Below, one piece after another: positions 2,493 through 58,917 of a DNA stretch of 64,000 nt; within the stretch, counting starts at the first letter, position 1, and every line of letters begins with the position of its first letter. The notes beneath the pieces were generated by a model. The model did not search any database. It was not told where the DNA came from and saw only the letters and a program-made list of their open reading frames with translations. Source of the stretch: Cirrosporium novae-zelandiae (Eukaryota). The stretch lies in contig JAPETS010000066.1 in assembly GCA_026023565.1 (NCBI GenBank), positions 1 to 64,000 of the forward strand. The letters are read 5' to 3'. The position numbers and the translations under genes are program-made.

Positions 2493-5400
2493 TCAAGGGA
2501 GATAGCTTCTGATCTCTTTAACTTGACGGACCAACTGTGGGATCTTTCTGAGAATAGCCATGTTTCCAGGATCGGTCTCCGCTACAACCATAAAATGACT
2601 CTCGAGTTTTTGAGATAGAGCGTCCAAAATTCTCGGCATGACCTGTTTGATCTCGGGATCCTGGATATCATTAGTGTCAATACCCATAGAAAAAGTTATC
2701 ATTTAGCTTACCATAGGATTGAGTCTCGGAAGAAGTGTTTCAAGCCAAGTCAAACGCTCCGCAAGATGAGTATCAAAGGTTTGCATGAGCGTAGCAGCGG
2801 TAGAGAGTGCCACGAGTGGTGCAACACTTCTAAGGAACTCGGGGCTATAACGGCAGAAGAAATTGTCGAATAGCTCAGATGGATGCTGTGATTGGATCCA
2901 CTAAAGGCAACATTAATCAAAGAACATAAAACCTAGTTTAATGGATATTCTTACCTTGACAGTTCCTTCGTCGTATTTACCTTCGTCCATAAGCATAGCA
3001 ATCTTTTCCATTTCCGAGAGCTCTAGAGCAGGAAGGGTAGAGGAACCATGTCTTGATGGAGAAGACTGAGTGGGAGCTGGGGCCGGAGCCGGAGCTTGTT
3101 TCTGAGACACAATACTTCGTAATTGGTTGACTTCATTTTGGAGCTCTGATTGAGTGGTAGCCATAGAGTGAACAGTTTCGGTCAATCCATGAACAAGTAG
3201 CATGAGCTGGTCGATCTTTTCATTGCTCTCTGTACGAATCACGTTGGCTTGCTGTAGCTGTTCGTTAACGCGCCTTTCAACTTCTTTGCTAATTTTTTGA
3301 CTGACACGTGAGGTGAGATCTTCAAACGCTGGCGCGATAGACGTTTGGAAGACTGTAGTCAAGCCGTTGTCAATACGTCCAGATAATTTGGCAGTGACAG
3401 CTTCAGATATGGAGCGCGCGACTTCTCGACTTTGCATGGCCTTGTTGATCACCTCAGGGAGAGATGCCTTCAGTTCACGTGGGATAATTTGGCGAAGGCT
3501 GTCCGAGAGAAGCTCAGTCACACGTTGATTGATGACGGATCCAACCACTTTATTAAGCTCGGGCACAATGTTATCTTTAATTCCAGAAGTTACAATGCGG
3601 GTGAGAGACTTTTCAATGTTATTGGATAGAGTACTTGAGATGAGACGAAGGACTGCATCTTGCTTCGCAGCGCCAGCAGCATCTTGTACTCGCCTGTCTT
3701 CTTCGATGTGACGGTAAAGATCATTAAATTGCTGACCAGTAGCCTCGTTGAATTTGCTGATCTCAGTTGAGATGGAGTCATTGACCTTCTGAGCTAGATC
3801 ATCCAAAAGATCACGCGAAATTTTGAGCCCAGATGATTCGGAGTCATGCATTGCTCGGGAGTGCAAATCGTCTAGACCCATTCTTGGATCGAAAAGTCGT
3901 TGTGCTGGCTTTGAGTTTCCGTTTGGTTTTGTAAGTGTGGAGAAACTGTCAGGTTGTGTATTGTTTGTTGAACGAGCTGCACTGGCATAAGTTTGCGAAG
4001 TTGGTGGAATATCCCGTTCGGATCCACTAATAATATTAGAGTTGGCGTCGCCCAACGCGGCCAACTTCTTCTTTCGTCTACTCGTTTTCTCAACCCCAGA
4101 GTTCGTTGGTAATTCTTGTCGTTGGGTTGACGAAGTCCTAGAGGGAACCTCTGGCCTATCGTCGCCGCCTCTAGCTTTAGCCGACCCTAGTAAAACAGGC
4201 TTTGTCGGAATGGGGATAGGAATTGGAGAGGCGACGCGACTGGTGTCACTTTGCTTCGCATCAACTCTAGACATTATTTGCTCTCCATTTGCGGACGAGC
4301 GGTCACTGGGTGGTTCAGACGGTTCTCGTAATTCCTTTACGACAATTACTCCTGTTTCTTCCGCATCAACCGGATGTAGAACCTTGAAGTCTCTGTTAGG
4401 GCTCCATCCTAAATCTTCTTTCTTGACCGTCACATAGGTCACGCCCTTAGAATGTGCTACGTAAAGTTCAAAGAGGACCTGGTCAAGGCCAAAGGTGCTG
4501 GATCCAGAATTTACCCGAGGCAACAGTTCGAGGCTTCTTAACTCGCCTTTTGGAGCGAACGAGTATTCTCTCAGTCCACTCATAATCGCAGTAGCCTCTG
4601 GTTTGGGTAAGGTTTCATCGTTATCTGCAAGTCGCTCTAGAAACTTGGCTTGATTCATCGCGGGAAGATTGTATTTTGGAGCAGAGAGGTGAATGAAATA
4701 GATCGAGTTTCGGGTTGGGTGACCAACAACGATAATACCAGAATTTGGATGATATGCAATGCTGCATATAGCATCAGACTCGTTCTCATGAGGGAAGTTC
4801 AACTCCTGGACAGCCTTTCCGAGGCCCAAATCCCACAATTGCAGTGTGTGGTTCTGCTTCATTCCCACGAGAAGATACCGCAGGGCGATTTCTTTACTGT
4901 AGGGACGAATCTTGTCAACAAAAAGGACTGATGTTGGCCAGGACTTCTCAGTAGGCGATGTTGTATTGAGGCTCCAAAGCGGAACTTTTACTTCAGAAGG
5001 TCGGCGAGGGGAATCTGCATCAAACAGAGCACGGATGTCCCAGAAACGAAGACGGCCTGCTTTATCGAGTGATACAATAAGGCTGTCGTCGTCACTAAAG
5101 CTGAAGTCTTTGCCAGCTTTTCCAGTTGCAATCTTCATGGTTCGCTCTTTGAAGAATCTTTCGGCATCAACACGACGGTAATTTGGAGCATTTCCAATCA
5201 CATATGGATCAGCACGATTGGACGAAACAATATGGATTGCCTTTCCTCTACCAATTGCAAAGAATTCCGGGTGGCGGGAGCTCTTCCTTGCTCGGGTCTT
5301 TAGCTGACCGCCCGAAGTTTGTGGATCTGGTGCAGGGACTGGAGGGAACACTAAGCTCTGACTTTCGACAGAAGGCGCATTTTCCGCGAATGTTTCTGAA

Positions 5401-7235
5401 TCCGAGATAGGAGACCAGTATACTGTACCACTGATTCCGGTAGCAATGACAGCTTGCACTTTGGAATCCTGAGAGGTAGGCGCAGTTGAGATGGCAATAT
5501 TGAAGATTCGATCGTGAGAGGAGCGGAAGACTTGTTTCTCAACACCATCATCCTGGCGGATTACCCTAAAACCGGATTTTGGCAGGGCATAAACAACGTA
5601 GCCCTCTGTCGCAGAGGCCAACGTTCGATCAATTTGGTCAAAGTCCTTCTTGAAACGTGCAACATCCATGAGAGCATCATCTCGAAAGCTCAATAATTGT
5701 TGTTTCTTGGACTTGATTTCGATCGAGACAAAAGGTCGCATGGGGAAATTAAACACAAGAACTTTCCGTTCCTCTGCTCTATCAGGGCCTTCTTCAGCGC
5801 TTTCCCAATCATCAACAACATTTCCATTCACCACCTCTTCGACGACTTCTTCAACTGCCCTTGCGACAGGTTCTGGGAAAGCCTCTCTCAAGGCCTCTTT
5901 GTTTCCCGGACTGTCCAGACTATCTTTGACATTGGCAGCAATGCTTTGTAGGTCTTCATGTGCAGCCTCCACAGCGGCATCCAGTTCAGCATCGGAAGCT
6001 TTTTCCAAAGCATCCATTACTGCATCAGCAGCCATACCTAGATTCTCCCTTTCCGCTCTTGTGAGGGCATCTTCCACTTCATGGTTGACTTCATCGCCCA
6101 TTTCCTGAAGAGCATCGGCAACAGATTGGTCTTTTGTGGTGGAATTACTAAGCCTTGATGGATGAAAGAGCTTTGCTTGACCGTTGAGCGTAGCAGATTT
6201 CTCTCTGGGAGAAACATTCGTTTCTTCATCCGCAGACAAATTCCTACGAATAGATGAGGTTTCGGGTGAAGATATTTTGCTTCGTTTGTTTCCATCTTTA
6301 GAGACCGACATTATGCCGGGCGTAGGTGTATCCTTCCTGGGAGGCTGATTACGTGGAGAGGAGGCAGCCAATTGCTCAAAGGGGTTCACATATGTAAATA
6401 TCGTGTCCCTCTTGGTTGCTGATGGTTCAAATGGAGTAGGCTTGCCAGTATCGTCAGCTCCAAAAACGCGTATTGTTGCTCCACGAGAACTCTGGCGGGA
6501 TGTTTCCTCCTTCGGCATGATATTCTCCCGACCTCTAGATCGATCTGAACTCGGTTCCGGTGTGTGCTTTGTTGGCTTTTGAGTCTCTCGACCACGCTCG
6601 CTCTCAGGTTTATTCTGAGAAGCAGTGCGATTCAAAAGCCGTAAAAGGAGATCTTGGGGGTTTTCAGTACCGACAGGAGGCTTTTCCTCCATAGCACTAT
6701 TTCCATGCTGTTCATATGCTTGCTCTTGGGAGTGTATAGATGTTTGTTCATGCCCGGAAGGCGATGATGGTTTTCCCATGAATGAAGCAACCAAATCTGA
6801 GGCAGAAACTCCTCTTCCATGAATACTATGGGAGCTCCCACCGTGAGAAACGGGAGATTTCAATTGAGATGGTTTATCGACCTCTCCAGAGGTGGCCTGA
6901 CCAAAGCTTGCAGGCGGTTGGCTGAATTTCAGGAGATTCAATAAAGATGCTGTTCGATCCGAACTTTGATGCCCCATACCGGGAGCTGGAGATATTGAAG
7001 GATTGGTTCTTGGGCTCGCAATGGTTGATGTATGTGGTTGAGATTCATTGGCTGGTGGGGACATTATAGGTGACGAGACAGACGGAGTGCGATATTCATG
7101 AGAGGGTAAAAAACCATTATGAGCAAAGGCATGTGCATTTCTGCTTTGGGATAGATTATTCGAAGGACTTCCTGTTCGGGAATCATTCCGTTGAAGGGAA
7201 GCAAAGAGAGCTTTTAAATCGTCAGAATTAGACAT
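2493..7235 (-). CDS. EDC4/Ge-1/Pdc1-like mRNA-decapping scaffold (disordered N-terminus, WD40 propeller, C-terminal helical region); 2 short introns near the 3' end
   Basis: 1440-aa ORF with a WD40-like core (LDKAGRLRFWD, NHTLQLWD) followed by a coiled/helical C-terminus; introns 2954-2901 and ~2711-2661 restore the frame into ORF 2493-2702. Confidence 0.75.
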
Positions 7236-11800: not shown

Positions 11801-12787
11801 CCTGGCTGAGAGATCTTTATTCTAGGCTCTTTCATGAAATGATACAATATCGCGTCTTGCGATTCCGCTAGGACGGCTCTTAAGCACCCCATAGGCAAAT
11901 GGTGCTATTTTCAGGTTACTAACTTGCTACAGAGTCTGGACCCAGATTATTAGCTCTGTTAACAACCTTCGATCAGTCTTTGCAGATAACACAGCTGTGG
12001 CCGAAGGACTAAAGAAGTTTATCCTTGAACTTGTGGCCCCGGCTACCGAGAAGATTGGTTGGGAATTTGCAGCTAATGAAGATTTCTTGACTGGCCAGCT
12101 TAGATCGCTCTTGATCACAGTTGCAGGAGGAGCAGGGCATACAGGGTAAGAAGTATTGAGGATATAGTATATGAGATACTCACTATTTGCAGTACCGTAT
12201 CAGAGTCAAAGCGTCGCTTTGAAGCCTATACGTCTGGAAAGGATAAGGCAGCAGTACATCCAAACCTTCGATCAGCCATTTTCGGTACGGTTGTGTCAGA
12301 AGGAAGCATGGCAGAGTACGAAGCGGTCAAGCAAGAATATCTCAAAACCGATTCTATTGATGGCAAAGAAATCTGTCTGCGTGCCCTGGCTAAGAGTAAA
12401 CTCCCAGAAGCCAACCTTGATCTCTTAAATTTCATATTTTCAGACAACGTGGCAGTTCAGGATGTTCATTCTGGAGCAAGCTCCCTGGCTTTGAACCCCA
12501 AAGGGCGAAAGGTTTTGTGGCAGTATATCAAAGAAAATTGGAGCAAAATCCATGACCGACTGTCAGGAAATTCTGTTGTACTTGACCGATTTGTCAAAAT
12601 GAGCCTGACCAAATTTGCGGACCATGAGATCGAAAGAGACATTGCATCCTTTTTCAAGGATAAGGACAACAGTGGCTATGATCGCACTCTTGTTGTTATT
12701 GCTGATTCGGTAAAGGCAAATGCGAATTATAAGGAAAGAGATGAGAAGTTGATTTTGGAATGGCTCAAAGCCCACGATTATGCGTGA
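8894..12787 (+). CDS. M1 family alanyl/leucyl aminopeptidase (Ape2/Aap1-like), multi-exon; second in-frame ATG at 9218
   Basis: [59 protein letters not shown] (HEXXH-X18-E) and [12 protein letters not shown] assemble across canonical introns; ERAP1-like C-terminal domain. Confidence 0.95.
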
Positions 12788-13301: not shown

Positions 13302-14320
13302 ATGAATCCTGAGTAGTAAGTTGAATCTGACCTCTTTGATCGGCCCCGAATTTCATTAAGGTTCCTTTGAACTCGAAGCCGAATACTAACTCTCACGCCT
13401 ATCTAGAGTTGACCACTGCCCTTCCTCTACCAGTCGACCCCAACAACCCACAACAGATCAAGTTGTGAATATATGTAAACAACAAGAAAACTGACTGGTA
13501 TCGCCTTCAGATACGATTACTTGTTCAAGCTGCTCCTTATCGGAGACTCTGGGGTTGGAAAGTCTTGTCTGCTCCTTCGATTCGCAGATGATACGTATAC
13601 GGAGAGTTACATTTCTACTATCGGTGTCGACTTCGTGAGTTTGACTGGTGGATTCCTGTCGTTTATAAGGCGACAAGAGAGTAACGGTGGACTAATTATG
13701 ATTAGAAAATCAGGACCATCGAACTTGATGGTAAGACTGTAAAACTTCAGATTGTAAGCGTTACCCATACCTCTACCCTCGTACGGGATCGCACCATGCT
13801 AACCCTACTGCCTTAGTGGGACACAGCGGGACAAGAGCGCTTCCGCACCATCACCTCCTCCTATTACCGTGGCGCACATGGCATCTGTGTAGTTTACGAT
13901 GTGACGGACATGGACTCGTTTAATAACGTTAAGCAATGGTTGCAAGAGATTGATCGATACGCTACCGAGGGTGTGAACAAGCTTCTTGTTGGCAACAAAT
14001 CCGATATGACAGATAAGAAGGTGGTAGAATACACTGTCGCTAAGGTATTACATTATACCCTTTTCGTCACCGCTAGATCTTTCATCTCGGTTGGATATTT
14101 CTATATGATACTTACACTGCTACAGGAATTTGCTGACAGCCTGGGTATCCCTTTCCTTGAAACTTCTGCTAAGAACGCTTCGAATGTTGAACAAGCCTTC
14201 CTTACCATGGCTCGTCAAATCAAAGAACGCATGGGTACCACAACTGTGAACAACAAACCTACCGTACAGGTTGGGCAAGGTACAGGTGTTGCTTCGGGGT
14301 CAGCTGGTGGATGCTGCTAG
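13302..14320 (+). CDS. YPT1: Rab1/Ypt1 small GTPase; exons 13302-13312, 13511-13634, 13707-13752, 13817-14044, 14126-14320
   Basis: [50 protein letters not shown] and the C-terminal GGCC prenylation motif. Confidence 0.98.
13313..13510 (+). other. Complex intervening sequence: candidate [D3,4] stwintron (internal intron 13316-13406 nested in the external donor)
   Basis: Internal intron has GTAAGT, ACTAAC (13385) and TAG (13406). Its removal joins GTA+AGT into GTAAGT. External branch ACTGAC (13490) and acceptor CAG (13510). Only a cut at 13312/13511 gives MNPEYDY. Confidence 0.8.
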
Positions 14321-29491: not shown

Positions 29492-31260
29492 ATGAACCCC
29501 AACACCAACAAGTCCACCTTCCCCAGAGAGAATATCGATATCGACTCAAACCATTCACATGGAAATGCTTCCTGTGACCTAGACGATATTGAAAAAGTCA
29601 ACACGCGCGAAACTGCTCGACAAAATGAGCTCGATCATATCCCCAGCCATATCTCGGCCCAGGATATACATGCTGTAGCTGTCGAACGAGAACGCCATGG
29701 AGAATATGATATGGATGAAACAATCTACCAGAAATTCTCCCCGCACCGAAAGACCATCATTTGTGCCGTGGTATCTTTTTGTGGGTTGCTGGCCCCTATA
29801 TCTTCCACGTCAATTTTATCAGCTATTCCAGAAGTCACATCTACATTTCATACGAAAGCTTCAGTGACTGACTTGACCAATGCATTCTATATGTTGGCCA
29901 TGGGAATCTCGCCTACAATCTGGGGCCCATTGAGTCAAATCTATGGTCGAAGATGGGTAAGCAAATGAGCACTTATCCCTTCCAATCCTATTTCCCACGT
30001 TTCTTTCACTTATACTTTTGCTAAATGTACTATTAGATATGTATATACACCGCATCTCTTTTTACAGTTTTCAACATTTGTACAGCTGTCTCACCAAATC
30101 TCCCGGCTTTTTTCGTCTTCCGAATCCTCACTGCTCTTCAAGGAACATCCTTCCTTACCATGGGTGCCTCAATCATCGGCGACATCTACAAGCCCACAGA
30201 GCGTGCTACGGCGATGGGATGGTTCCTCTCTGGCACTCTCATTGGCCCTGCGTTTGGTCCTTTCATCGGTGGCATCATTGTTACTTTCCGCTCTTGGCGC
30301 GTCATCTTCTGGCTCCAAACCGCACTCGGTGGCCTCGGGACAATCCTCGTTGTCATATTCCTCCCAGAAACAATTCACTATGCCAAATGTGACGAACTTG
30401 TCGGTCTTCCTCCAAAACGAAAATTCCGCAAGTTAGCACAATGGACATCGCCATGGCGTGTGATAGCTCTTTTCTCCTATCCCAATATTATTGCGGCAGG
30501 ATTTGCCTCTTCTTCTCTTACCTGGAACATGTATAGTCTTTTGACACCTATCCGCTACGTTCTGAACCCTCGCTTCAATCTCACCTCGCCCTTACAATCT
30601 GGCCTTTTCTACCTTGCCCCGGGTTGCGGGTACCTCCTTGGAACATTCTTTGGTGGAAGATACGCGGACTATTGGGTTAAGAAATACCTTAAGAGGCGTA
30701 ACGGTGAACGTGTTCCGGAGGACCGGTTGAATTCCTGTTTACCGTTCATGGGCATCGTTATTCCAGGCTGCATGCTTGTATATGGCTGGGCAGTCGAGAA
30801 GGCAGTAGGTGGCATTCCTCTTGTTGTCATTGTGATGTTCGCGCAGGGGGTAGCACAGTTGTTCTGCTTTCCTAGCCTTAACACTTACTGCGTTGATGTG
30901 ATGCAAAGTCGTAGTGGAGAAGTTGTCGCTGGGAACTATGTTATTAGATATCTCTTTGCATGCCTTGGAACTGCATTGGTATTACCTGCTGTTGAAAGCA
31001 TAGGTGTTGGTTGGTTCAGCACGATTTCGGCTGCCTTCGTTTGTGGCAGCGCCATTTTACTTTGGACGACGACCATCTATGGCAAAGCATGGAGAGAGAA
31101 GACAAATGCAAGGAAAGAAAGAAAGAGGAAAGCAAGGGTAGCCAAGAAGCTTGAAAGAGCACAGCCTTCGTCATCACCTTCCTCGTCTTCAGCTTCTTCC
31201 TCTACGGATGATGTGAGAATGGAAACAACTCAACAACAGGTGGGTGAAAAGGTCCAATAG
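29492..31260 (+). CDS. MFS transporter, DHA1 drug:H+ antiporter family (Dtr1/Qdr-like); intron 29957-30037
   Basis: WGPLSQIYGRR, IIGDIYKPTERATAMGWFLSGTLIGPAFGPFIGG, WRVIFW, FLPET, PEDRL; many hydrophobic TM segments. Confidence 0.93.
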
Positions 31261-31952: not shown

Positions 31953-34715
31953 ATGTTCCGTGCTGGGACATCGTTGCTGGCAAGGACTTTGGGGAGGGTA
32001 GAGCCAAATGCTTCCACACAGTCTCTAGACTCATTGGCTGAGTTGCAATCCTGTGAGCAATATCATACTTCATAGTAGAGCTGTGTACTGATGACTTCAA
32101 TAGTAGAGTCTGCTATGCGCGGTATTATCCCCCATGTTCGTCCTATTCGTTCTATCAATGTTCGCAACAAATTCAAATAAATCCCATCTTCATCTTGCCA
32201 TGCAAGCTTGCATAAACCAACCTTTTCTCCTTCCTAGAGGTCCTTCGCATACGCTTCTACCTTCGCCACTTTGCCCGGGCTGGTTCAGACTTAGTTTGGC
32301 TTGTTCCGGACATTGCAAGTCCCCAGAACCTCATACTGACTACTATTTTCAGCTGCGGCGCAAATAATGAATGACGATGTAGACGCAGCTGAGGAAGGAT
32401 TAAGCCATGGAAACTCTTCTTTTCATAAGGTACGATTACCGCTAGAGTTGAAAGCCCAGGAGAAAAAGGCTGGGGATTTACCGAGGGCTGACACTTCGAT
32501 GGTTTTTATAGCTTGGAAAGGGTCTAGTAGCTTTTATTAGAGCTACGTTGGGGTTTGAACAGGAGATTATGCGTGAAGGTTTGGAATTTCAATGTGGGCT
32601 TTTGATGTGTGGACATTGACGGTGTGTTTCTGTGTCTCATAGCTTCTGAACGGTTAGCCGACGCGGAAGCAGCAGCAAGTCACGACCATCGTCGAATCCA
32701 GCGTGATGCCAATGCCTTTCGATCTTCCATATATCCCCCAGGTGCCGAATTGGCCCTTTGCCATGCTATGTCACAATTAATGAGCGCTGTCGTCGGAGTA
32801 CTTAATGAGAGCCTAACGGAGAGTATAAAAGGATTTTACAAATTAAGGAAAGCTTATATGACTTTGGAATCTATATTGGACGCCGAAAGCACCTTTATGA
32901 AATCTCAGTCAGAGCCACGTCTGGCGAAGGAAAGGACATCGATGGAATCATTTACATCGAGTCATTCATCTCCTTCGCTCAGAGTACCGGGAGCCTTTGA
33001 TGAGATTGAATCTGAAAATCCATCAGGGAAAGCATCCCCCAAGTCCATTAACGGAGAAGGGAACGGGAAGTCTGGTGCTAGTGCTCCAGGAGAAGATGAA
33101 TTCTTTGATGCAAGTGAAGCAAAACAAGGTGAAATAACACCTGAAACTTACGAGGGAAACATTGATATCAAGAACATTGAAGAGAAAACAGCCGCGCTCT
33201 CTATAGAACCCCAGCCTTTGGTGTCATCAACATTCAGCAAGCCTCCCACAATACCTAAAAAAAATGCACTTCTAATTGACTACAATCCCGATTCCGAGAT
33301 TTTCGCCAACCCCATTGACGTCTTTATCCACTCGGGAGCAAATCTCTGTTTCGGGATTCTCCTTATCATGATCTCTATGATCCCTCCTGCGTTTGGGAAA
33401 CTCCTTTTCATTATCGGCTTTAAAGGCGATAGGGAACGGGGCTTGCGTATGCTCTGGCAATCGAGTAAATTTCACAACATTAGTGGTGCAATGGCTGGTC
33501 TCGTTCTTCTTGCTTACTATAACGGACTTTCCAGCTTCTGTGATATTCTGCCAGATCCTCCTGCCGATGATGAAGATAACCCAGAAGGTTACCCCAAAGA
33601 GAGGTGTCACGCACTGCTAGCAGACCTAAGAGAAAGGTTTCCAAGGAGCAAGCTCTGGCTGTTAGAAGAAGCACGAATGAAGGCAGCAAATAAGAGTTTG
33701 GATACTGCATTAACTTTGCTTAGAGGAGATCTTAAGAGTCCATTAAAACAGGTAGAGGCATTGGGGGTTTTCGAGAAGAGCTTGGATTCGATGTATGCGC
33801 ATCGATATCAAGAATCCGCAGACTCTTTCTTGGAAGTAAGTTTTTCACCCCCGTTCGCCAAGTTTAAAGCCTCTAACCTCCTCTTCTTAGTGCATGAAAA
33901 TAAACACCTGGTCCCACGCTCTCTACTACTACATAGCAGGAATCAATCATCTCGCCCTCTACCGACAATACTCGGCACGCTCTTCAACCCCAAACCCCAA
34001 ACTAGCCTCCAACCACGCCAAGCTCGCCACCAAATTCCTGCAGACGGCACCCACCCACGCCGGCAAAAAGCGATTCATGGCGCGCCAGCTCCCCTTCGAC
34101 GTCTTCGTGGCCCGCAAGGTCGAAAAATGGTCCACCCGCGCCAAAGACCGTGGTATCGACTTCATAGATGCAGCTGGCGTCTCCCCAGTCATAGAAATGA
34201 TATTCCTCTGGAACGGTCTTAAACGAATGACGCCAGAACTCCTCCAAAAGTGTCTTGACGCCCTTTTCTACGACACACACTCCCCAACCTGGGACCAAGA
34301 AGATAAAGACGAAAAAGCTCTTGAAGCTCTCATCCGCGCTTCCGTGACCCGACATCTCGGCCACCCAGCGGACGCCCGCGCGATCCTCACAGCCGAAGTA
34401 ATGGACATCGACCGCAAAGAATTCAAAGGCCCCGGAAAGGACGACTGGGTGCAGCCATCCGCGTGCTTCGAAATCGCAGCCACGCATTGGGAGGAGAAGG
34501 ATCTTTCACCACCCAACTCATCCTCAACCCTCTTTCATCATCAAAGAGACATGGTCGCGAAAACTAAGGAGTGGACGGATAAAGCGTCGAATTGGGAGTC
34601 GTTTGAGCTCGAAGCCAGACTAGGAATGAAGTTTCGCGTTGCGTTGCAGACGGTGCAATGGTGGGAGGAGCGGAATGTGAATGTGATCTCGCATGCGCAT
34701 ACCACAGCCTTTTAG
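31953..34715 (+). CDS. IML2: Iml2/TTC39-family TPR protein; 6 exons including an 18-nt micro-exon 32104-32121
   Basis: [112 protein letters not shown]. Confidence 0.85.
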
Positions 34716-35289: not shown

Positions 35290-38200
35290 CTAACCGCCCC
35301 CAACCCCGATCCCATTCCCATTCCCACCAACACTACTCTCATCAATATCCATGCTCTCCAATCCCAAATCCTCCAACGCCCCCACAAACTCATACTTCCC
35401 CCCCTCAACCGCCGCCACCCGATCAAGCTCCTCCTGATACTCCCTCCTCAGATCCTCCAACGCAACGACCCTCCTCTTCCCTGGCGTCAACTTCATCCTC
35501 TCCTTCTCTTTATTATCCCTGAGAAGAGTTTTGTTTTCGAGGTCTTTGCCTAGGAGGGTGATTTCGCCGGAGCCGGCGGGACCTTGTTCGCGGAGGCGGG
35601 CGGGTTGGAGGTTTTGTTTTTGGGTGGAGGCGAGAGGGAGAGTCGGTGGTTGGGGGATGGTGACGTTGGCGGAGGAGGAGGATGTACTAGTAGTGGTGGG
35701 GAGGTCTTCAGCGAAGATCCAGGCTTGGTCTTTGGAGACGAGGGAGAGTAGGTTGATGATCGTCCTGTATTCCCTCAGGACCTCTTCTTCCGGGTTCTGG
35801 TCTTGGTCCGTGTTTCCTCGGATGCGCCGCTTTGTCCCTACACTTCGACGCCTTTTCCCGCCGAGGACAGGAAGACGTTGTAATCGGTCCCAGATTACTT
35901 CCGCGGCGCCTCGGAAATCTCCCCGCTTGATGCGGTAGGATGCTAGGACACGGTGCCATTCAGGCGCGGCATCTAGATCCAGGACTTTCTTCGCCAACCC
36001 TTCTAATGTGGTGTCGACGTGGTGATTTAGGATTTCGTTTGCGAAGGGAAGGGCTAGGAGTTCTGATGTCGCGTTGTGTGTCACCGTGTGTGTGATGAGG
36101 GATGTTAGGCATGATTTCTGCAGCGCCATGATGGGTATTTGGGAGAGTGCGGAATAAGCAAGGGTATAAGATTGGGTTTGGAGGGCAGAATTGAAGAGAC
36201 GGGAGAGAAGGTCTATTTTGTTTTGTGAGCGCTCGGTGGAAGAGGCTGTTGTGGACATTGGCGAGGATAGGAATTGAAGAGCCAAGTCGGCGAAAATGGA
36301 GACGTAGGAGTATGCGTGGTCGGATTCGAAGAGAGTTAGGATGTGCTGATAGTATTTTGAGAGACCATTATGGAAGTGGTCGACGTCGATTAAGGAGAGT
36401 AGGTCTGAACTCATTTCTCGGAGCTCACCCATGGCTTTTCCATGTGCCAGAACATACGCCGCTTGTTTGAAGGCTAGGGTTGCTCGGTCGTATTCTCCCC
36501 TCATCAAGTATAACCGCCCTTTCACATATGTGGACCAGGCTGTAGAGGGCTGAAATCGCAGGAATTCTGAGGCAAGAGATATGTTTTGGGTTTGGAGAAG
36601 GTTGCATTGGATATAGACAAGGGAATTGGAGAATGTGGTGGAGAGGACTGGGGATGACTTAGACCCAATTGTCCAAGCTATGAGTTCACGAATATTGTAG
36701 GTAAGGATGGACGTATACGGCTGATGGACGGGGGAAAGGGGTCGAACATCGTAGGCGAATAGATCAGAGAGAAGAGATATCTCTGGAGCAGTTGGCGAAG
36801 GGATTTGTTGGGAGGACGATGATGGTGATCGGTTAGGGGTGCCTCCCATTGAGGTAGAGACGTTTGGTCGTATAGTCTTTCGCCGAGTTGTCTTTGCGAG
36901 CCATTTCATGACCTCATGTTGCTTCAGGTACCCAAGGAACCCTTCAAATATTTCGGGGGCGTTGAATTTATCTATAGGCTCTCCACCATCTTGATGAATC
37001 TCAACTTCCACAAAAACAGCCAGTAGAAGTAAATCAAAAAGCATCCTCCAGGTCATGTAGATTGTCTCCTGCGCGCCATGGACAAGCACCTTTACACCAA
37101 ACTCGGTCGATCTTAACCTTGTTTCCCTACCCACAAAATCGAGAGGTAGTGTCTCAGCGATCTGATAGAAAAGATCGTTGCTCAAAACCCCATACCCGCC
37201 AAATGATCCTGCCCGTTTTGCGAGCTCATCATACATATCGTCACTGACATACTCAGCAAACCTGCATTGGTCGTAGAATCTTTGGATTCTAGTCAAAATT
37301 GAAAACGATGGTTCCTGCAAAACTTCAGATTCTAGGGCTATTCTACAGCTCTCCTGTAATTCCTCTGGAAAACTTTCTCGAAAAGCGGCCGCAAGATTCA
37401 CAAGTCCAGAGAGTTTTTCTGGACTCTCAAGTAACCCATCCTCATATTGACGATGGTGTCGCCGCCGAAGTGTTTCTTGGGAATCTATGAGGATTTGAGG
37501 ACGATTATGAGCCAAAATTTCAGTACTGCTGCAATCTCGAATGGCACAGCATGAATCTGCAGTAATAACCCAAGGTAAATCAGCAAAGTGATCATAAGCC
37601 ATTGAGATTGGCTCATGTCTTCGTTTGTTCAAATCCTCGGCAATCCGCCAGAACTGCTGCCAATGAACTTGCGTATCGTCTCGAAAGCGTTCGTAGTCTA
37701 TTTCTGAATCTGCACGTCTTCGAATAGTTACAGCTGAGGCAACAGATGAGCAGATACGATCCTTTAATGATCTACCCTTAGTTGATTGTGAATCTTGGGA
37801 TGTTTGGGTTGCGTCCCTATAAATAGCTAGAGAAGTCTCCAAGACCGCATCGGTATATCGACCAGGAAATAAAATGTAGTCCATCCATTTCTCAGTTACA
37901 TCTTCAGGGTCAGTATCAGATATTACTGGTGTCGGGATGCTCGTTCCATGCTCCGGAGTACATCCCACCCAGTCATCCTCCCAGACCTCTGGAAGCTTTG
38001 TAAGATCAAATTTGAGCGTGAAGATCTTATAATTGGTGTCATATTTCCAGAGCATCCACATTTCCATTAGTCGTCCTTGTTCCATAGCCTTCACATCAAA
38101 GTCTGCCACAATCCAGAGAGGGTTGGACTGATCTGGGTCAGGAGGATACAGGGTCTGAGTCGGGTATAAGTCATCGATGTGCACAATACCACCATCAGGC

Positions 38201-39308
38201 TGGCCAATAGACCAGAACTTGAACTGGCCATCTTCGTGCGGGGAGAAAGTTACTGCAAAATAGCTATTCCCCGCAACCGCTCGTTCAGAGTTGAACATCC
38301 GAATACGGTGGGTATTTGCCGGATTAAGCCTATATTGCAAAGCTTCCTGGGGCAACCTTTCTTTGTTTAGAAGATCTTTACCACAATCCACCTTCCCAGA
38401 TTCAATATTCCATGCCTTGAGCATATGGTTTAGGCATACAGTAAAAACATATTTGCCATCCGGAGAAGTCGCAAGAGCTGTAGCAGTTGATTGATCCAAA
38501 GACCTGCCGTCATATCGAATAGTATTATTTCCCTGCCATCTGATAAGACCACGAAGAGAAGAAGCCCAGGCACCGTCGTTGTATGTAGCTTCTCGCCATA
38601 AGAAACCTAGATTCCTGTCAGCACATCCAGAAATTTTTATCAACCATAGATCGTACTGTGTTCCTCGGGCTTTCTAGTCAGCCTCAACAGCCCACCATTG
38701 TCCAGCGCAATCCACACATCGTAAGAATTGCTAGCATGTATCTTATGTGGATGCGCCATACTGAATGCGTTGGGAGAAAAAGCATTATACCAAGACGAAA
38801 TTTCTGCCTCAGAAGCCAGAGGCCTGTAAAAAAACTCATGTCGCAGCGTCAATGTATGTAGCTGATTATTCTTCGTCAAAACCAGAACAGTCAACAAATC
38901 ATGGGCTTTCGTATCTGCTAATGCCACCCCATCAGCTCTTATAGGCGACGGGAAAGTGAATCGCAAGACGAGCTTCGCCTCATTTCCATCATGGCCACTT
39001 CTGAACAGATCAATACACCGTAGCTCCAAAATATTGTCTCCCAGTACCCGCCATAGAATGGTCCGAGGTGATTGATTAGATTGTCGGAAATAGATAGAAC
39101 CGCGCGCAGCCAGGTATTTGTGAGCAAAGGTACTCTCATCGACCGCAATAAGGTTATCGTGTTCAGGACGGTTCCCACGTTTTAATCGTGGGGAGAGGGA
39201 AGTGTAACTGAATGTTGGAATGATGATGTAGATGACGGCGTCTGGATTGGGAGGGGAGAGATCGACGCGCGTCTCTTTGAAGAGACAGAGATTTTTAGAT
39301 ATGGTCAT
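35290..39308 (-). CDS. NUP120: Nucleoporin Nup120/Nup160; one intron (~38655-38607)
   Basis: N-terminal FKETRVDL...SIYFR...PRTILWR, predicted beta-propeller then helical solenoid, C-terminal RRVVALEDLRREYQEELDRVAAVEGG typical of fungal Nup120/160. Confidence 0.85.
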
Positions 39309-56904: not shown

Positions 56905-58608
56905 TCATCGGAAATCATATACCTTCAGGCTTTGCGCTCCTTCGGGCCGTTTCTCCTTGAGTACAACAACTTGCTCGTCGTTGAAACCAATCCAGCTATG
57001 ACTGAAGTTGATGGGAAGTTCATGAGCTGTATTCATTTCTTGAAAGGCAAGGCCGATACCACGGCCACGGGAGTGAAGGGCAGGATTCAAGAGAGTAAGT
57101 GCTTCGTGACCAGAGGAGGTAGCCTCTTCTGTACGGTCCGCTTCGTCTTCATCGTCATCCGAGCTTGATAAGCATGAAGTAGGGATAGGGTTGGGTTTTA
57201 CTACCACACTTCTAAACCCTTTTTGTCGTGCTTTTACACCGCCAGCCATAACGAGATCCTCTAGTTCCCAAACCCGCATCTCCTCACCAATAGTACTGAT
57301 AGATACAGCTTTTCCGCGGTCACTAATATACGCACCAGATATTGAGGATGTGTGACCCCACAGGCGACGAGCTGAACTGATGCGAAGGGAATCTGGTGTC
57401 GACGAAGCAAGATATAGCGATAGAGTGTTATCTGCATGAGAAAGGAGGATATATGGGTGTGTATAGGAAAGCGAAGTTGGATGGCTATTATTAGCGACAA
57501 AGGGCGAGAAATTGGTGTTTATGGAATTTAAGAGGTCGACAGGGATACGGGGGCGGGGTTCCTCATCTGCAGCACTGGCAAGACGTGATTGTATAGTTTT
57601 TCCAGATGGATTCATAAGAATTTCTTGGAGACCAACAGTCCACCCAGTGAACGGGGTGGCAAATGCGTAGGCAATGGAAGCTTTGATGCCTTTGGATGTA
57701 GGTCGAATCGAAAGGGAAAGTGGGTCGCCCACAGTATGCGATTTGAGAGATGTCAGGAGAGTTGGCTTTCTATCTATATCGGAGAGGCTGTAAAGAGAGA
57801 GAAGTCGAGCACCTGTCATGGTGAGAAGGAATGGGTGGGAGTATGCGATGGCGGAAAGAACACCAGTGGAAGAAGGATGTGAGTATCTGCGAATAAACTG
57901 TCTATCATTTGAAGAGTATTGGAAAAGATCAAAGCCGCCATCTTGAAAGCCTACGGCCACACGAGTTATATCTTCATTTTTGTACTGCGTGTCCACTGCA
58001 AGTGATGATGGTTTTCTAGGGTCAACAGCTCCTCTGTCATTTTCGAAAGTTATACTTCCATGAAGAGCCCGATTGTTCTTTAACGACCACGCTCTAAGAC
58101 CTAATGTGGAATCCACTGTAAATGCAAAACCTTTGTGTAGCCGTACGAGTAGAGGAGGGGTTGGCCGATGTTCTGATAGCTGGACTTCGGAGATGTTACA
58201 GCATCCCTTTGACCAGTTATGACGTAACTTATATTGCCTCTTCCAATTTGTATTCATGCCTCTCTTCACAAGATGGTCATCATCAAGCCATTTCGAAAGT
58301 TTAGAGGAAAATAGTAAGGATTGGGACGATGTCGCACTCTCCTTAATCCCTGGTATCCTGGCGGCTCGAGGCCTCACGAAGCGAGTATAGTAGGCCGCTT
58401 TCCAAAGCTGAGGATCGCCTGCGAGGATATAAAAACGGCGAGATAGTTTCTGACACTGCGCCAAGGTGTATGTAGGAAGTTGGCTTAGTATTTTTAAGAG
58501 CAACTCGTCGCTCAATGATGAGAGGCGGTCTGGATGTAGAGGCCGATGCCGCTTGGGGGATGGTTTTTCTATTTCATTATCGTTTTGATTTCGATTTCGT
58601 TTCACCAT
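56905..58608 (-). CDS. F-box protein with WD40-like C-terminal region (intronless)
   Basis: DRLSSLSDELLLKILSQLPTYTLAQCQKLSRRFYILAGDPQLWK F-box, WKRQYKLRHNWSKG, RLWGHTSSISG...MRVWELE. Confidence 0.9.
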   Translation of the reverse strand: MVKRNRNQNDNEIEKPSPKRHRPLHPDRLSSLSDELLLKILSQLPTYTLAQCQKLSRRFYILAGDPQLWKAAYYTRFVRPRAARIPGIKESATSSQSLLFSSKLSKWLDDDHLVKRGMNTNWKRQYKLRHNWSKGCCNISEVQLSEHRPTPPLLVRLHKGFAFTVDSTLGLRAWSLKNNRALHGSITFENDRGAVDPRKPSSLAVDTQYKNEDITRVAVGFQDGGFDLFQYSSNDRQFIRRYSHPSSTGVLSAIAYSHPFLLTMTGARLLSLYSLSDIDRKPTLLTSLKSHTVGDPLSLSIRPTSKGIKASIAYAFATPFTGWTVGLQEILMNPSGKTIQSRLASAADEEPRPRIPVDLLNSINTNFSPFVANNSHPTSLSYTHPYILLSHADNTLSLYLASSTPDSLRISSARRLWGHTSSISGAYISDRGKAVSISTIGEEMRVWELEDLVMAGGVKARQKGFRSVVVKPNPIPTSCLSSSDDDEDEADRTEEATSSGHEALTLLNPALHSRGRGIGLAFQEMNTAHELPINFSHSWIGFNDEQVVVLKEKRPEGAQSLKVYDFR

Positions 58609-58917
58609 GATCAGTATTATCGTGGGGAATTTAATGTTATATATTAAGCAGAACCAAAGATCCGGTGAGGAAACAAAATAAATACCATAGATACCTGAAT
58701 CATAGTCTGAACAAAGAAGAAATTCCATTTATCGTTATCGAGGCTTACCTAATACAGTTAGTTACAACTGTATATTACACCGGAAATTATTTACGTCACG
58801 TTTCGTCTTGTCCAAACTTCTCGTGTTCCAACTACCCATAATTATATAAGTAGTCTTGTTACGTGATTTGGCCCTATCTAAAATATCCATCAGACAACGA
58901 CATTATATATCAATCCA

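Follow-up and report, generated by a model that had tools for sequence, protein, structure and literature searches.

Donor-split spliceosomal twin introns (stwintrons) have been demonstrated experimentally in ascomycetes, where intron definition leads to their excision from the inside out (PMC7138796). The types demonstrated up to 2020 were [D1,2], [D2,3], [D5,6], and [A2,3], and three more ([D4,5], [D6,7], and [D7,8], the latter two sensu lato) were added in that year, as summarized in PMC7138796. The introductions of papers from 2022 and 2025 name no further donor type and describe types beyond [D1,2] as rarely met (PMC9024468, PMC12403724). Here, we analyzed a 64,000-nucleotide (nt) stretch of DNA from Cirrosporium novae-zelandiae (contig JAPETS010000066.1, positions 1 to 64,000), hereafter the window, which carries a YPT1 gene for a Rab1 GTPase. 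Judging from its sequence and that of its relatives, the first intron of this gene (13313-13510) is quite likely a donor-split stwintron of type [D3,4], removed by two cuts from the inside out.

The closest described systems are the [D2,3] stwintron of bioDA (PMC5639578) and the [D4,5] stwintron in a reticulon-like gene of Lipomyces lipofer (PMC7138796). In both, as in YPT1, a U2 intron lies inside the six-base donor of another U2 intron and a canonical donor is rebuilt; inside-out removal would be a further likeness of the YPT1 intron. YPT1 differs from them in that its donor is split between bases 3 and 4, the sole split of the hexamer for which the accessible parts of these sources name no demonstrated type. 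Besides, the YPT1 host is highly conserved and the split falls in a conserved N-terminal codon, whereas the Lipomyces stwintrons are found, according to PMC7138796, in an N-terminal extension that is disordered and poorly conserved. Neither a [D3,4] type nor a YPT1 case was found in the stwintron texts covered, which include neither the founding paper of 2013 nor a paper of 2015, and wording for a split between the third and fourth bases did not turn up among the matches listed. The main texts by the group defining stwintrons contain no mention of YPT1, Rab, or GTPase, although not every term was checked in every text. The name ypt1 was absent among the literature matches listed for ypt1 combined with nested-intron terms, and a search with motif strings gave, among the matches listed, only unrelated microRNA and primer matches. 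As far as these partial sources extend, a [D3,4] twin intron in YPT1 has probably not been described previously.

The elements of intron 1 in the window are as follows (slashes within sequence strings mark exon, intron, or half-donor boundaries).

13313..13315, forward strand: outer half-donor GTA; the unsplit genomic hexamer is GTAGTA, which matches CAG/GTAAGT at 3/9 positions and has no G at +5
13316..13406, forward strand: internal intron of 91 nt, complete in its splicing signals
13316-13321, forward strand: internal donor GTAAGT
13384-13390, forward strand: internal branch point TACTAAC, whose branch A (13389) lies 17 nt ahead of the G in the AG
13404-13406, forward strand: internal acceptor TAG (CTAG ending at 13406); no earlier AG follows the first branch-point consensus
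13407..13409, forward strand: second half-donor AGT, which together with 13313-13315 gives GTAAGT
13407..13510, forward strand: remainder of the external intron, 104 nt long, or 107 nt when GTA is counted
13490-13495, forward strand: external branch point ACTGAC, whose branch A (13494) lies 16 nt ahead of the AG
13508-13510, forward strand: external acceptor CAG, with exon 2 starting from 13511

Intron 1 totals 198 nt (91 nt internal and 107 nt external, the latter composed of 3 and 104 nt). It combines, in continuous sequence, the features that define donor-split stwintrons, namely, internal splicing signals, a rebuilt canonical donor, and an external branch point and acceptor. A five-exon join with four introns removed gives a 606-nt frame with a single terminal stop, encoding 201 amino acids (aa). 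Removal of the whole of 13313-13510 is required for this reading frame and yields MNPEYDYLFK... followed by the rest of the 201-aa Rab1 frame. The conserved start MNPE/YDY demands a cut after 13312, where the genome reads TGA/GTAGTA, with a perfect GTAAGT only 3 bases downstream. Since the protein places the cut at the weak site and the strong donor leads into a stop codon, two routes remain: direct cleavage at the weak GU, or a two-step removal of the intron. All positions and sequence elements that the initial annotation of this DNA had assigned to intron 1 agree with the sequence base for base. We also confirmed its proposal that loss of 13316-13406 fuses GTA and AGT into GTAAGT, as well as its warning that a splice from 13315 to 13511, or a halt after the first step, reads GAG TAA.

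In the two-step reading, an ordinary 91-nt U2-type intron (13316-13406) would sit between the third and fourth bases of the donor of the 107-nt intron. Intron definition would bring together the closest suitable signals (the GTAAGT that starts at 13316, TACTAAC, and the AG ending at 13406), and the internal intron would leave in the first step, giving a predicted intermediate with the junction 13315/13407, in which ...CCTGAGTA is joined to AGTTGACC.... GTA (13313-13315) would thereby meet AGT (13407-13409), placing GTAAGT directly after ...CCTGA. In the second step, this new donor would be used together with ACTGAC and the CAG at 13510, producing ...CCT GA/A TAC..., which encodes MNPEYDY. The layout of the signals suggests this order of the two cuts, and it suggests the two-step route as the main path to mature mRNA.

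We then compared this intron with related loci. Exon 4 served to query metagenomes in a single scan, which matched 593 stretches, including 567 relatives, and the best 80 of the 567 were used, with exon 2 located in each locus by tblastn. Among these best 80 loci, the acceptor AG/A TAC was found at the window's position in seven (L001, L002, L003, L004, L006, L007, and L035). The comparable set, with the intron and a complete 5' end, consists of six (L001, L002, L004, L006, L007, and L035); L003, whose contig has only 93 nt ahead of exon 2, and L005, which is cut inside exon 2, were left out. In 11 other loci (L009, L024, L026, L031, L038, L043, L044, L047, L055, L058, and L074), the acceptor is displaced 3 nt downstream into the Tyr codon, and most of the remaining loci run through the site uninterrupted (cDNA-like or intronless) or do not contain the region.

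The sequence ATG AAY CCN GA directly precedes intron 1 in the window and in five of the six comparable loci, and exon 1 of the sixth, L035, reads ATG GCC AGT CAA GA. In the window and all six loci, intron 1 starts with GTR/GTNNGN; the exon ends and intron starts of the loci read as follows.

L006 and L007: GA/GTA/GTAAGT
L002: GA/GTA/GTATGT
L001: GA/GTA/GTACGA
L004: GA/GTG/GTATGT
L035: GA/GTG/GTAAGT

Each of the seven sequences (the window plus six loci) has exactly one nested solution. The internal acceptor was also located by a simple rule set beforehand, which takes as the branch point the first YTRAY lying 25 nt or more inside the internal intron and as the acceptor the first AG at least 7 nt past the branch A. 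By this rule, the AG is followed by AGT in six loci and by TGT in one (L001), and the rebuilt donors are GTAAGT in four cases, GTATGT in one, and GTGAGT in two. In the pattern GTA...AG/AGT, whose conservation the initial annotation had suggested examining, AGT is kept in 6/7 loci (TGT in L001), and the outer triplet is GTA in 5/7 and GTG in two. Both halves of the donor vary, but the product always stays within GURWGY, the fungal donor consensus quoted in stwintron papers (PMC7138796). The internal intron ranges from 60 to 183 nt and the external intron from 78 to 136 nt in the seven loci. When the same rule was applied to five comparison introns of 181 to 611 nt, situated at the neighboring position in loci of other exon structure (L009, L024, L026, L031, and L044), no nested-like solution was found.

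These loci are deeply diverged. Protein identity across 130 codons is 98-100% (81-82% for L035), and identity at third codon positions between loci is 0.34-0.65, with a GC content at third codon positions (GC3) of 0.37-0.87. The seven introns are alignable at their ends only, and their internal acceptors fall in different alignment columns. As the introns cannot be aligned and the third positions are saturated, the nested signal has been kept through saturating divergence, which common descent in the absence of selection would not explain. In this respect, YPT1 resembles the bioDA and lipS stwintrons, described as kept across deeply diverged lineages. The nested architecture that the initial annotation had proposed for the window is seen in 7/7 loci. 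The sequences show this architecture, its conservation, and how poor the outer donor is when unsplit; the order of cuts in that proposal is what the architecture would predict. The [D1,2] stwintrons of Hypoxylaceae and Xylariaceae (PMC9024468, PMC12403724), as described there, differ in this point: the YPT1 copies have no sequence similarity or terminal symmetry, and they appear to represent a single old locus rather than a propagating family.

Several other sequences at or near this intron position are worth recording. The gene at L035:2028-2976 is a divergent Rab1-like gene (about 81% identity over 130 aa) with the N terminus MASQE and a GC3 of 0.37; it has intron positions 1 to 3 in common with the window and the nested design GTG/GTAAGT...AG/AGT, and it represents either a fast-evolving lineage or a paralogue with a retained twin intron. 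The sequence AG/AGTT... stands at the internal acceptor in the window, L006, L007, and L035. The left-out locus L003 (L003:1-93) opens inside intron 1 with GTTCGCC, which would fit A/GTT... after the internal acceptor, the bases further upstream being cut off. L005 has no intron 2 (L005:32-61; GVDF runs directly into KIRTIE), although introns 3 and 4 are present, which is an intron 2 loss in one lineage. A degenerate pattern of the acceptor plus exon 2 had 0 matches in the genome contig collection, and a protein-guided scan of the genome contigs with exon 4 gave 79 loci (L081-L159), none usable for intron 1. The latter include many Rab-like genes with 37-65% identity in metagenome-assembled genomes of Asgard archaea (Hermod-, Promethe-, Thor-, Heimdallarchaeota, and others) and some of bacteria, as well as a handful of small fragments, 223-524 nt in length (e.g., L102, with 92% identity across 36 aa).

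Several points weigh against the two-step reading, and the first concerns chance. We scored the full nested grammar (GTR, donor, branch point, AG plus WGY, branch point, AG) and found a single occurrence in the window, both strands counted, at 13313, and on average 0.73 occurrences (range, 0-3) in 30 first-order Markov resamples of the window. A nested solution also appeared in 606/5000 dinucleotide shuffles of the interior of the window's intron (p ~0.12). The pattern in the window, taken alone, is at chance level. It might then be a chance resemblance, or the gene model might be wrong, with the true start and exon 1 elsewhere and nested splicing unneeded. We consider this very improbable: ATG AAY CCN GA abuts GTR in the window and five loci (ATG GCC AGT CAA GA in L035), MNPE(Y) is the exon 1 product also in loci of other exon structure, and the nested structure is present in 7/7 loci. 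Shuffles with at least one nested solution numbered 606, 356, 449, 548, 686, 377, and 326 of 5000 for the seven intron interiors, and multiplying the per-locus p values gives 5.8e-8. The above-chance status of the design rests on its location at the sole exon border that the protein requires and on its recurrence in 6/6 comparable loci.

The second point concerns the alternative of direct cleavage. All 198 nt might leave in one step by use of the weak outer GU (13313), with U1 perhaps placed on the overlapping GTAAGT and U5/U6 setting the cleavage 3 nt upstream, as at delta-3 (GYNGYN) donors. The exon border is formally a GYNGYN motif (GTAGTA, 13313-13318), with two GU dinucleotides 3 nt apart as at the donors described in PMC1779574 and PMC11162779. 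According to these sources, GYNGYN donors are widespread, with alternative use documented in animals (PMC1779574), cleavage in human cells at donors spaced by 3 nt can fall on the GU that U1 does not pair with, and site choice in STAT3 is independent of the exact U1 register (PMC11162779). Given this behavior of human donors, direct cleavage at 13312/13313 with U1 on GTAAGT is conceivable. Furthermore, intron 4 of the same gene uses AAG/GTATTA (14045), the sole donor of the 24 examined without a G at +5, so that this fungus can evidently use some weak donors directly.

We compared donor strength, taken as the number of matches to the 9-position CAG/GTAAGT. The outer sites of intron 1 match at only 2-4/9 positions and have a G at +5 in 0/7 loci, and the rebuilt donors match at 5-7/9 in 7/7 loci. 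The 24 other donors of the gene, from nine loci, match at 4-7/9 (mean, 5.2), with a G at +5 in 23/24. Even the donor of intron 4 in the window still matches at 5/9 positions, versus 3/9 for the outer site of intron 1; the orthologous intron 4 begins with GTATGT, GTGTGC, GTCGGC, or GTGCGT in L001-L006. Intron 1 is also long, at 163-261 nt versus 50-110 nt for introns 2 to 4, or about the length of two ordinary fungal introns. A one-step model gives no reason for this doubled length, nor for the presence of an internal branch point, first AG, and WGT in 7/7 loci amid drift (joint p 5.8e-8), and an internal 3' splice site beside a strong donor would be harmful under it. Moreover, tandem donors, as described, give two in-frame isoforms in one step, whereas the downstream choice in YPT1 gives a stop in 7/7 loci, and YPT1 has, unlike GYNGYN donors, a conserved internal 3' splice site that would offer a two-step route. 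For these reasons, we regard one-step excision as unlikely.

The remaining points against two-step removal concern our criteria and the loci themselves. The branch-point and acceptor criteria were written after the six loci had been seen, though they were copied from the published consensus. The external introns of L002, L007, and L035 have no YTRAY 7-45 nt from the AG, and only a degenerate CTCAC or CTTAC can be picked out by eye; the internal donor of L001, GTACGA, is weak (4/9). The independence of the loci as fungal lineages is suggested by their divergence and common intron positions. The intermediate, the order of the cuts, and even the mature junction are all deduced from genomic sequence.

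Recursive splicing in long animal introns uses ratchet points with the motif AG/GTAAGT. The two-step reading of YPT1 resembles it in stepwise removal, with a donor that would be regenerated after the first step. However, a ratchet point builds its donor from the exon end and the GT after the internal AG, whereas YPT1 would build it from an intronic GTA and AGT, and the first step in the YPT1 design uses a donor inside the intron, unlike at a ratchet point. Indeed, the internal junction reads AG/AGT or AG/TGT, not AG/GT, in 7/7 loci.

An intronic RNA gene or a special fold was also considered as the cause of the conserved signals and was rejected. Rfam gave only a sub-threshold chance match, located in exon 4, and the fold of 13302-13520 is unremarkable (z -1.54; 17/200 shuffles fold equally well).

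In addition to the nested intron, the initial annotation had proposed that its stop codon serves as an on/off switch acting through nonsense-mediated mRNA decay. In such a switch, which would be compatible with two-step removal, productive two-step splicing would alternate with distal-to-distal splicing, whose product (MNPE-stop) would be degraded. The distal-to-distal product does carry a stop in 7/7 loci (TAA in five and TGA in two), and, according to published abstracts, [D1,2] stwintrons are occasionally mis-spliced in one step. The [D1,2] stwintrons of Hypoxylaceae and Xylariaceae are likewise nested U2 introns in which one-step use of the distal sites leaves donor bases behind and spoils the frame or message (PMC9024468, PMC12403724), but they leave one G and hence a frameshift, whereas YPT1 leaves three bases, so that the frame is kept but a stop is read. 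This stop, however, comes for free: it arises because GTR is followed by the opening A of exon 2, and three of the four combinations of GTA or GTG with A or G are stops. It is a near-automatic by-product of the architecture.

The base that opens exon 2 and completes the split Glu codon as its third base is A in 8/8 loci despite an excess of GAG elsewhere in the genes (GAG 34 versus GAA 14), at the following positions.

Window: 13511
L001: 2215
L002: 2207
L003: 93
L004: 2155
L006: 2210
L007: 2228
L035: 2205

This invariant A is a real constraint, and it counts to some extent in favor of a switch. In the five GTA loci, though, a G would still make a stop (TAG), so that keeping the stop does not explain the A there. 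A G at the start of exon 2 would also create a donor-like string, AG/GTACGA, at the exon border, which the A avoids. Besides, the intron shows no conserved element or unusual fold in the alignment, the Rfam search, or the shuffles given above. We found nothing pointing to regulated use, and we hold the switch to be unsupported and unlikely.

The two-step reading gains a historical side from loci with a plain intron nearby. In five loci, the Tyr codon is interrupted by a plain intron, placed 3 nt downstream of intron 1 in the window, a relation that the initial annotation had not pointed out.

L009:253-730, plain intron in the Tyr codon
L024:1645-2269, plain intron in the Tyr codon
L026:1532-2045, plain intron in the Tyr codon
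L031:1647-2155, plain intron in the Tyr codon
L044:1955-2155, plain intron in the Tyr codon

Exon 1 of these loci ends with ...GAR TA (...GAC TA in L044), followed by GTAAGT or GTGAGT, and the acceptor reads AG/Y GAY. Their exon 4 is 72-91% identical to that of the window, and L009, at least, differs from the window in exon structure. L024 encodes MSTMNPE-, which is presumably reminiscent of animal RAB1A. No exon 1 was found for L038, L043, L047, and L055, and the exon 1 candidates of L058 and L074 were dropped, as the implied introns were only 35-38 nt long and one contained a stop.

The plain-type string ...CCN GAG TA/GTAAGT is identical to the ...CCT GA/GTA/GTAAGT of the window. This identity suggests that the twin intron arose from an older plain intron in the Tyr codon and that the intron position moved by 3 nt, which we consider probable. 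In such a path, the older intron (...GAG TA/GTAAGT...AG/Y GAY), taken as the ancestral eukaryotic Rab1 intron, would survive as the internal intron, and its last three exon bases, GTA, would have been recruited as half of a new donor. A second intron body and three coding bases (ATA, in exon 2) would have been gained downstream, giving ...GA/GTA[GTAAGT...AG]AGT...AG/A TAC. No intermediate form, alternatively spliced form, or plain GA/A intron was found among the fetched loci. As with the bioDA and Lipomyces cases in their sources, the YPT1 stwintron occupies the position of a plain intron in other taxa. A stwintron-mediated shift of 1 nt has been described in which close but discordant intron positions in orthologues are linked by a twin-intron stage (PMC5587772); the YPT1 shift would be similar in kind but is 3 nt (GA/A versus TA/Y), and the path is drawn from string identity only. 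Tentatively, and with slightly more doubt than confidence, we propose that intron 1 of YPT1 represents the [D3,4] class so far missing: obligatory for a core trafficking GTPase, old enough to be shared by saturated lineages, and a record of a one-codon intron move.

The host gene is a Rab1/YPT1 GTPase, on the basis of sequence similarity. Pfam Ras family matches cover exons 2, 4, and 5 (exon 2, E 8e-13), and the best PDB sequence matches of exon 4 are Rab-1A/1B and YPT1 (E 8e-41 to 1e-36) rather than other Rabs, the next families (Rab-10/35/8) following at E ~1e-26. We take the gene to be essential, from what is generally held of YPT1. Its exons and its other introns, all removed for the reading frame together with intron 1 (13313-13510), are as follows.

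13302..13312, forward strand: coding part of exon 1, ATG AAT CCT GA (M, N, P, and 2 bases of Glu), with the ATG at 13302-13304
13511..13634, forward strand: exon 2, which opens with A (third base of Glu) and continues for 41 residues from TAC GAT TAC; Pfam Ras family
13635..13705, forward strand: intron 2, 71 nt, donor GTGAGT
13706..13753, forward strand: exon 3, 16 residues
13754..13816, forward strand: intron 3, 63 nt, donor GTAAGC
13817..14044, forward strand: exon 4, 76 codons, the query for related loci
14045..14125, forward strand: intron 4, 81 nt, donor AAG/GTATTA without G at +5
14126..14320, forward strand: exon 5, ending with ...GGCC and the stop TAG

The other large frames of the window are ordinary fungal genes. 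They include an EDC4-like beta-propeller protein (2913-7235), an ERAP1-like aminopeptidase C terminus just upstream of YPT1 (12293-12787), an MFS transporter (30160-31260), Iml2/TTC39 (32768-34222), the nucleoporin Nup120 (35290-38424), and an F-box protein of the pof12 type (56905-58728). The Nup120 gene places the window in an ascomycete: its nearest Atlas clusters bear the label Ascomycota, and the name of the first refers to the Aspergillus nidulans protein.

Nature offers no clearer test than stwintrons of the way in which splice sites in short fungal introns are selected and ordered by the spliceosome, and stwintrons also serve as models for the origin, movement, and disappearance of introns. 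A [D3,4] case would complete the series of splits of the donor hexamer; the other splits are demonstrated, and nearly all described cases are [D1,2], according to the accessible stwintron texts. YPT1 would offer a highly comparable gene with deep conservation and an intron only one codon away from the other Rab1 intron position, and hence a system for asking whether two-step removal is obligatory, how often the one-step error (a stop at codon 5) occurs, and how a 3-nt slide takes place. For annotation, gene callers must accept GTAGTA or GTGGTA as a "donor"; otherwise, YPT1 is truncated or mis-started. If the proposed history is true, a codon-sized intron slide via a twin-intron stage would be visible in a gene present in every eukaryote.

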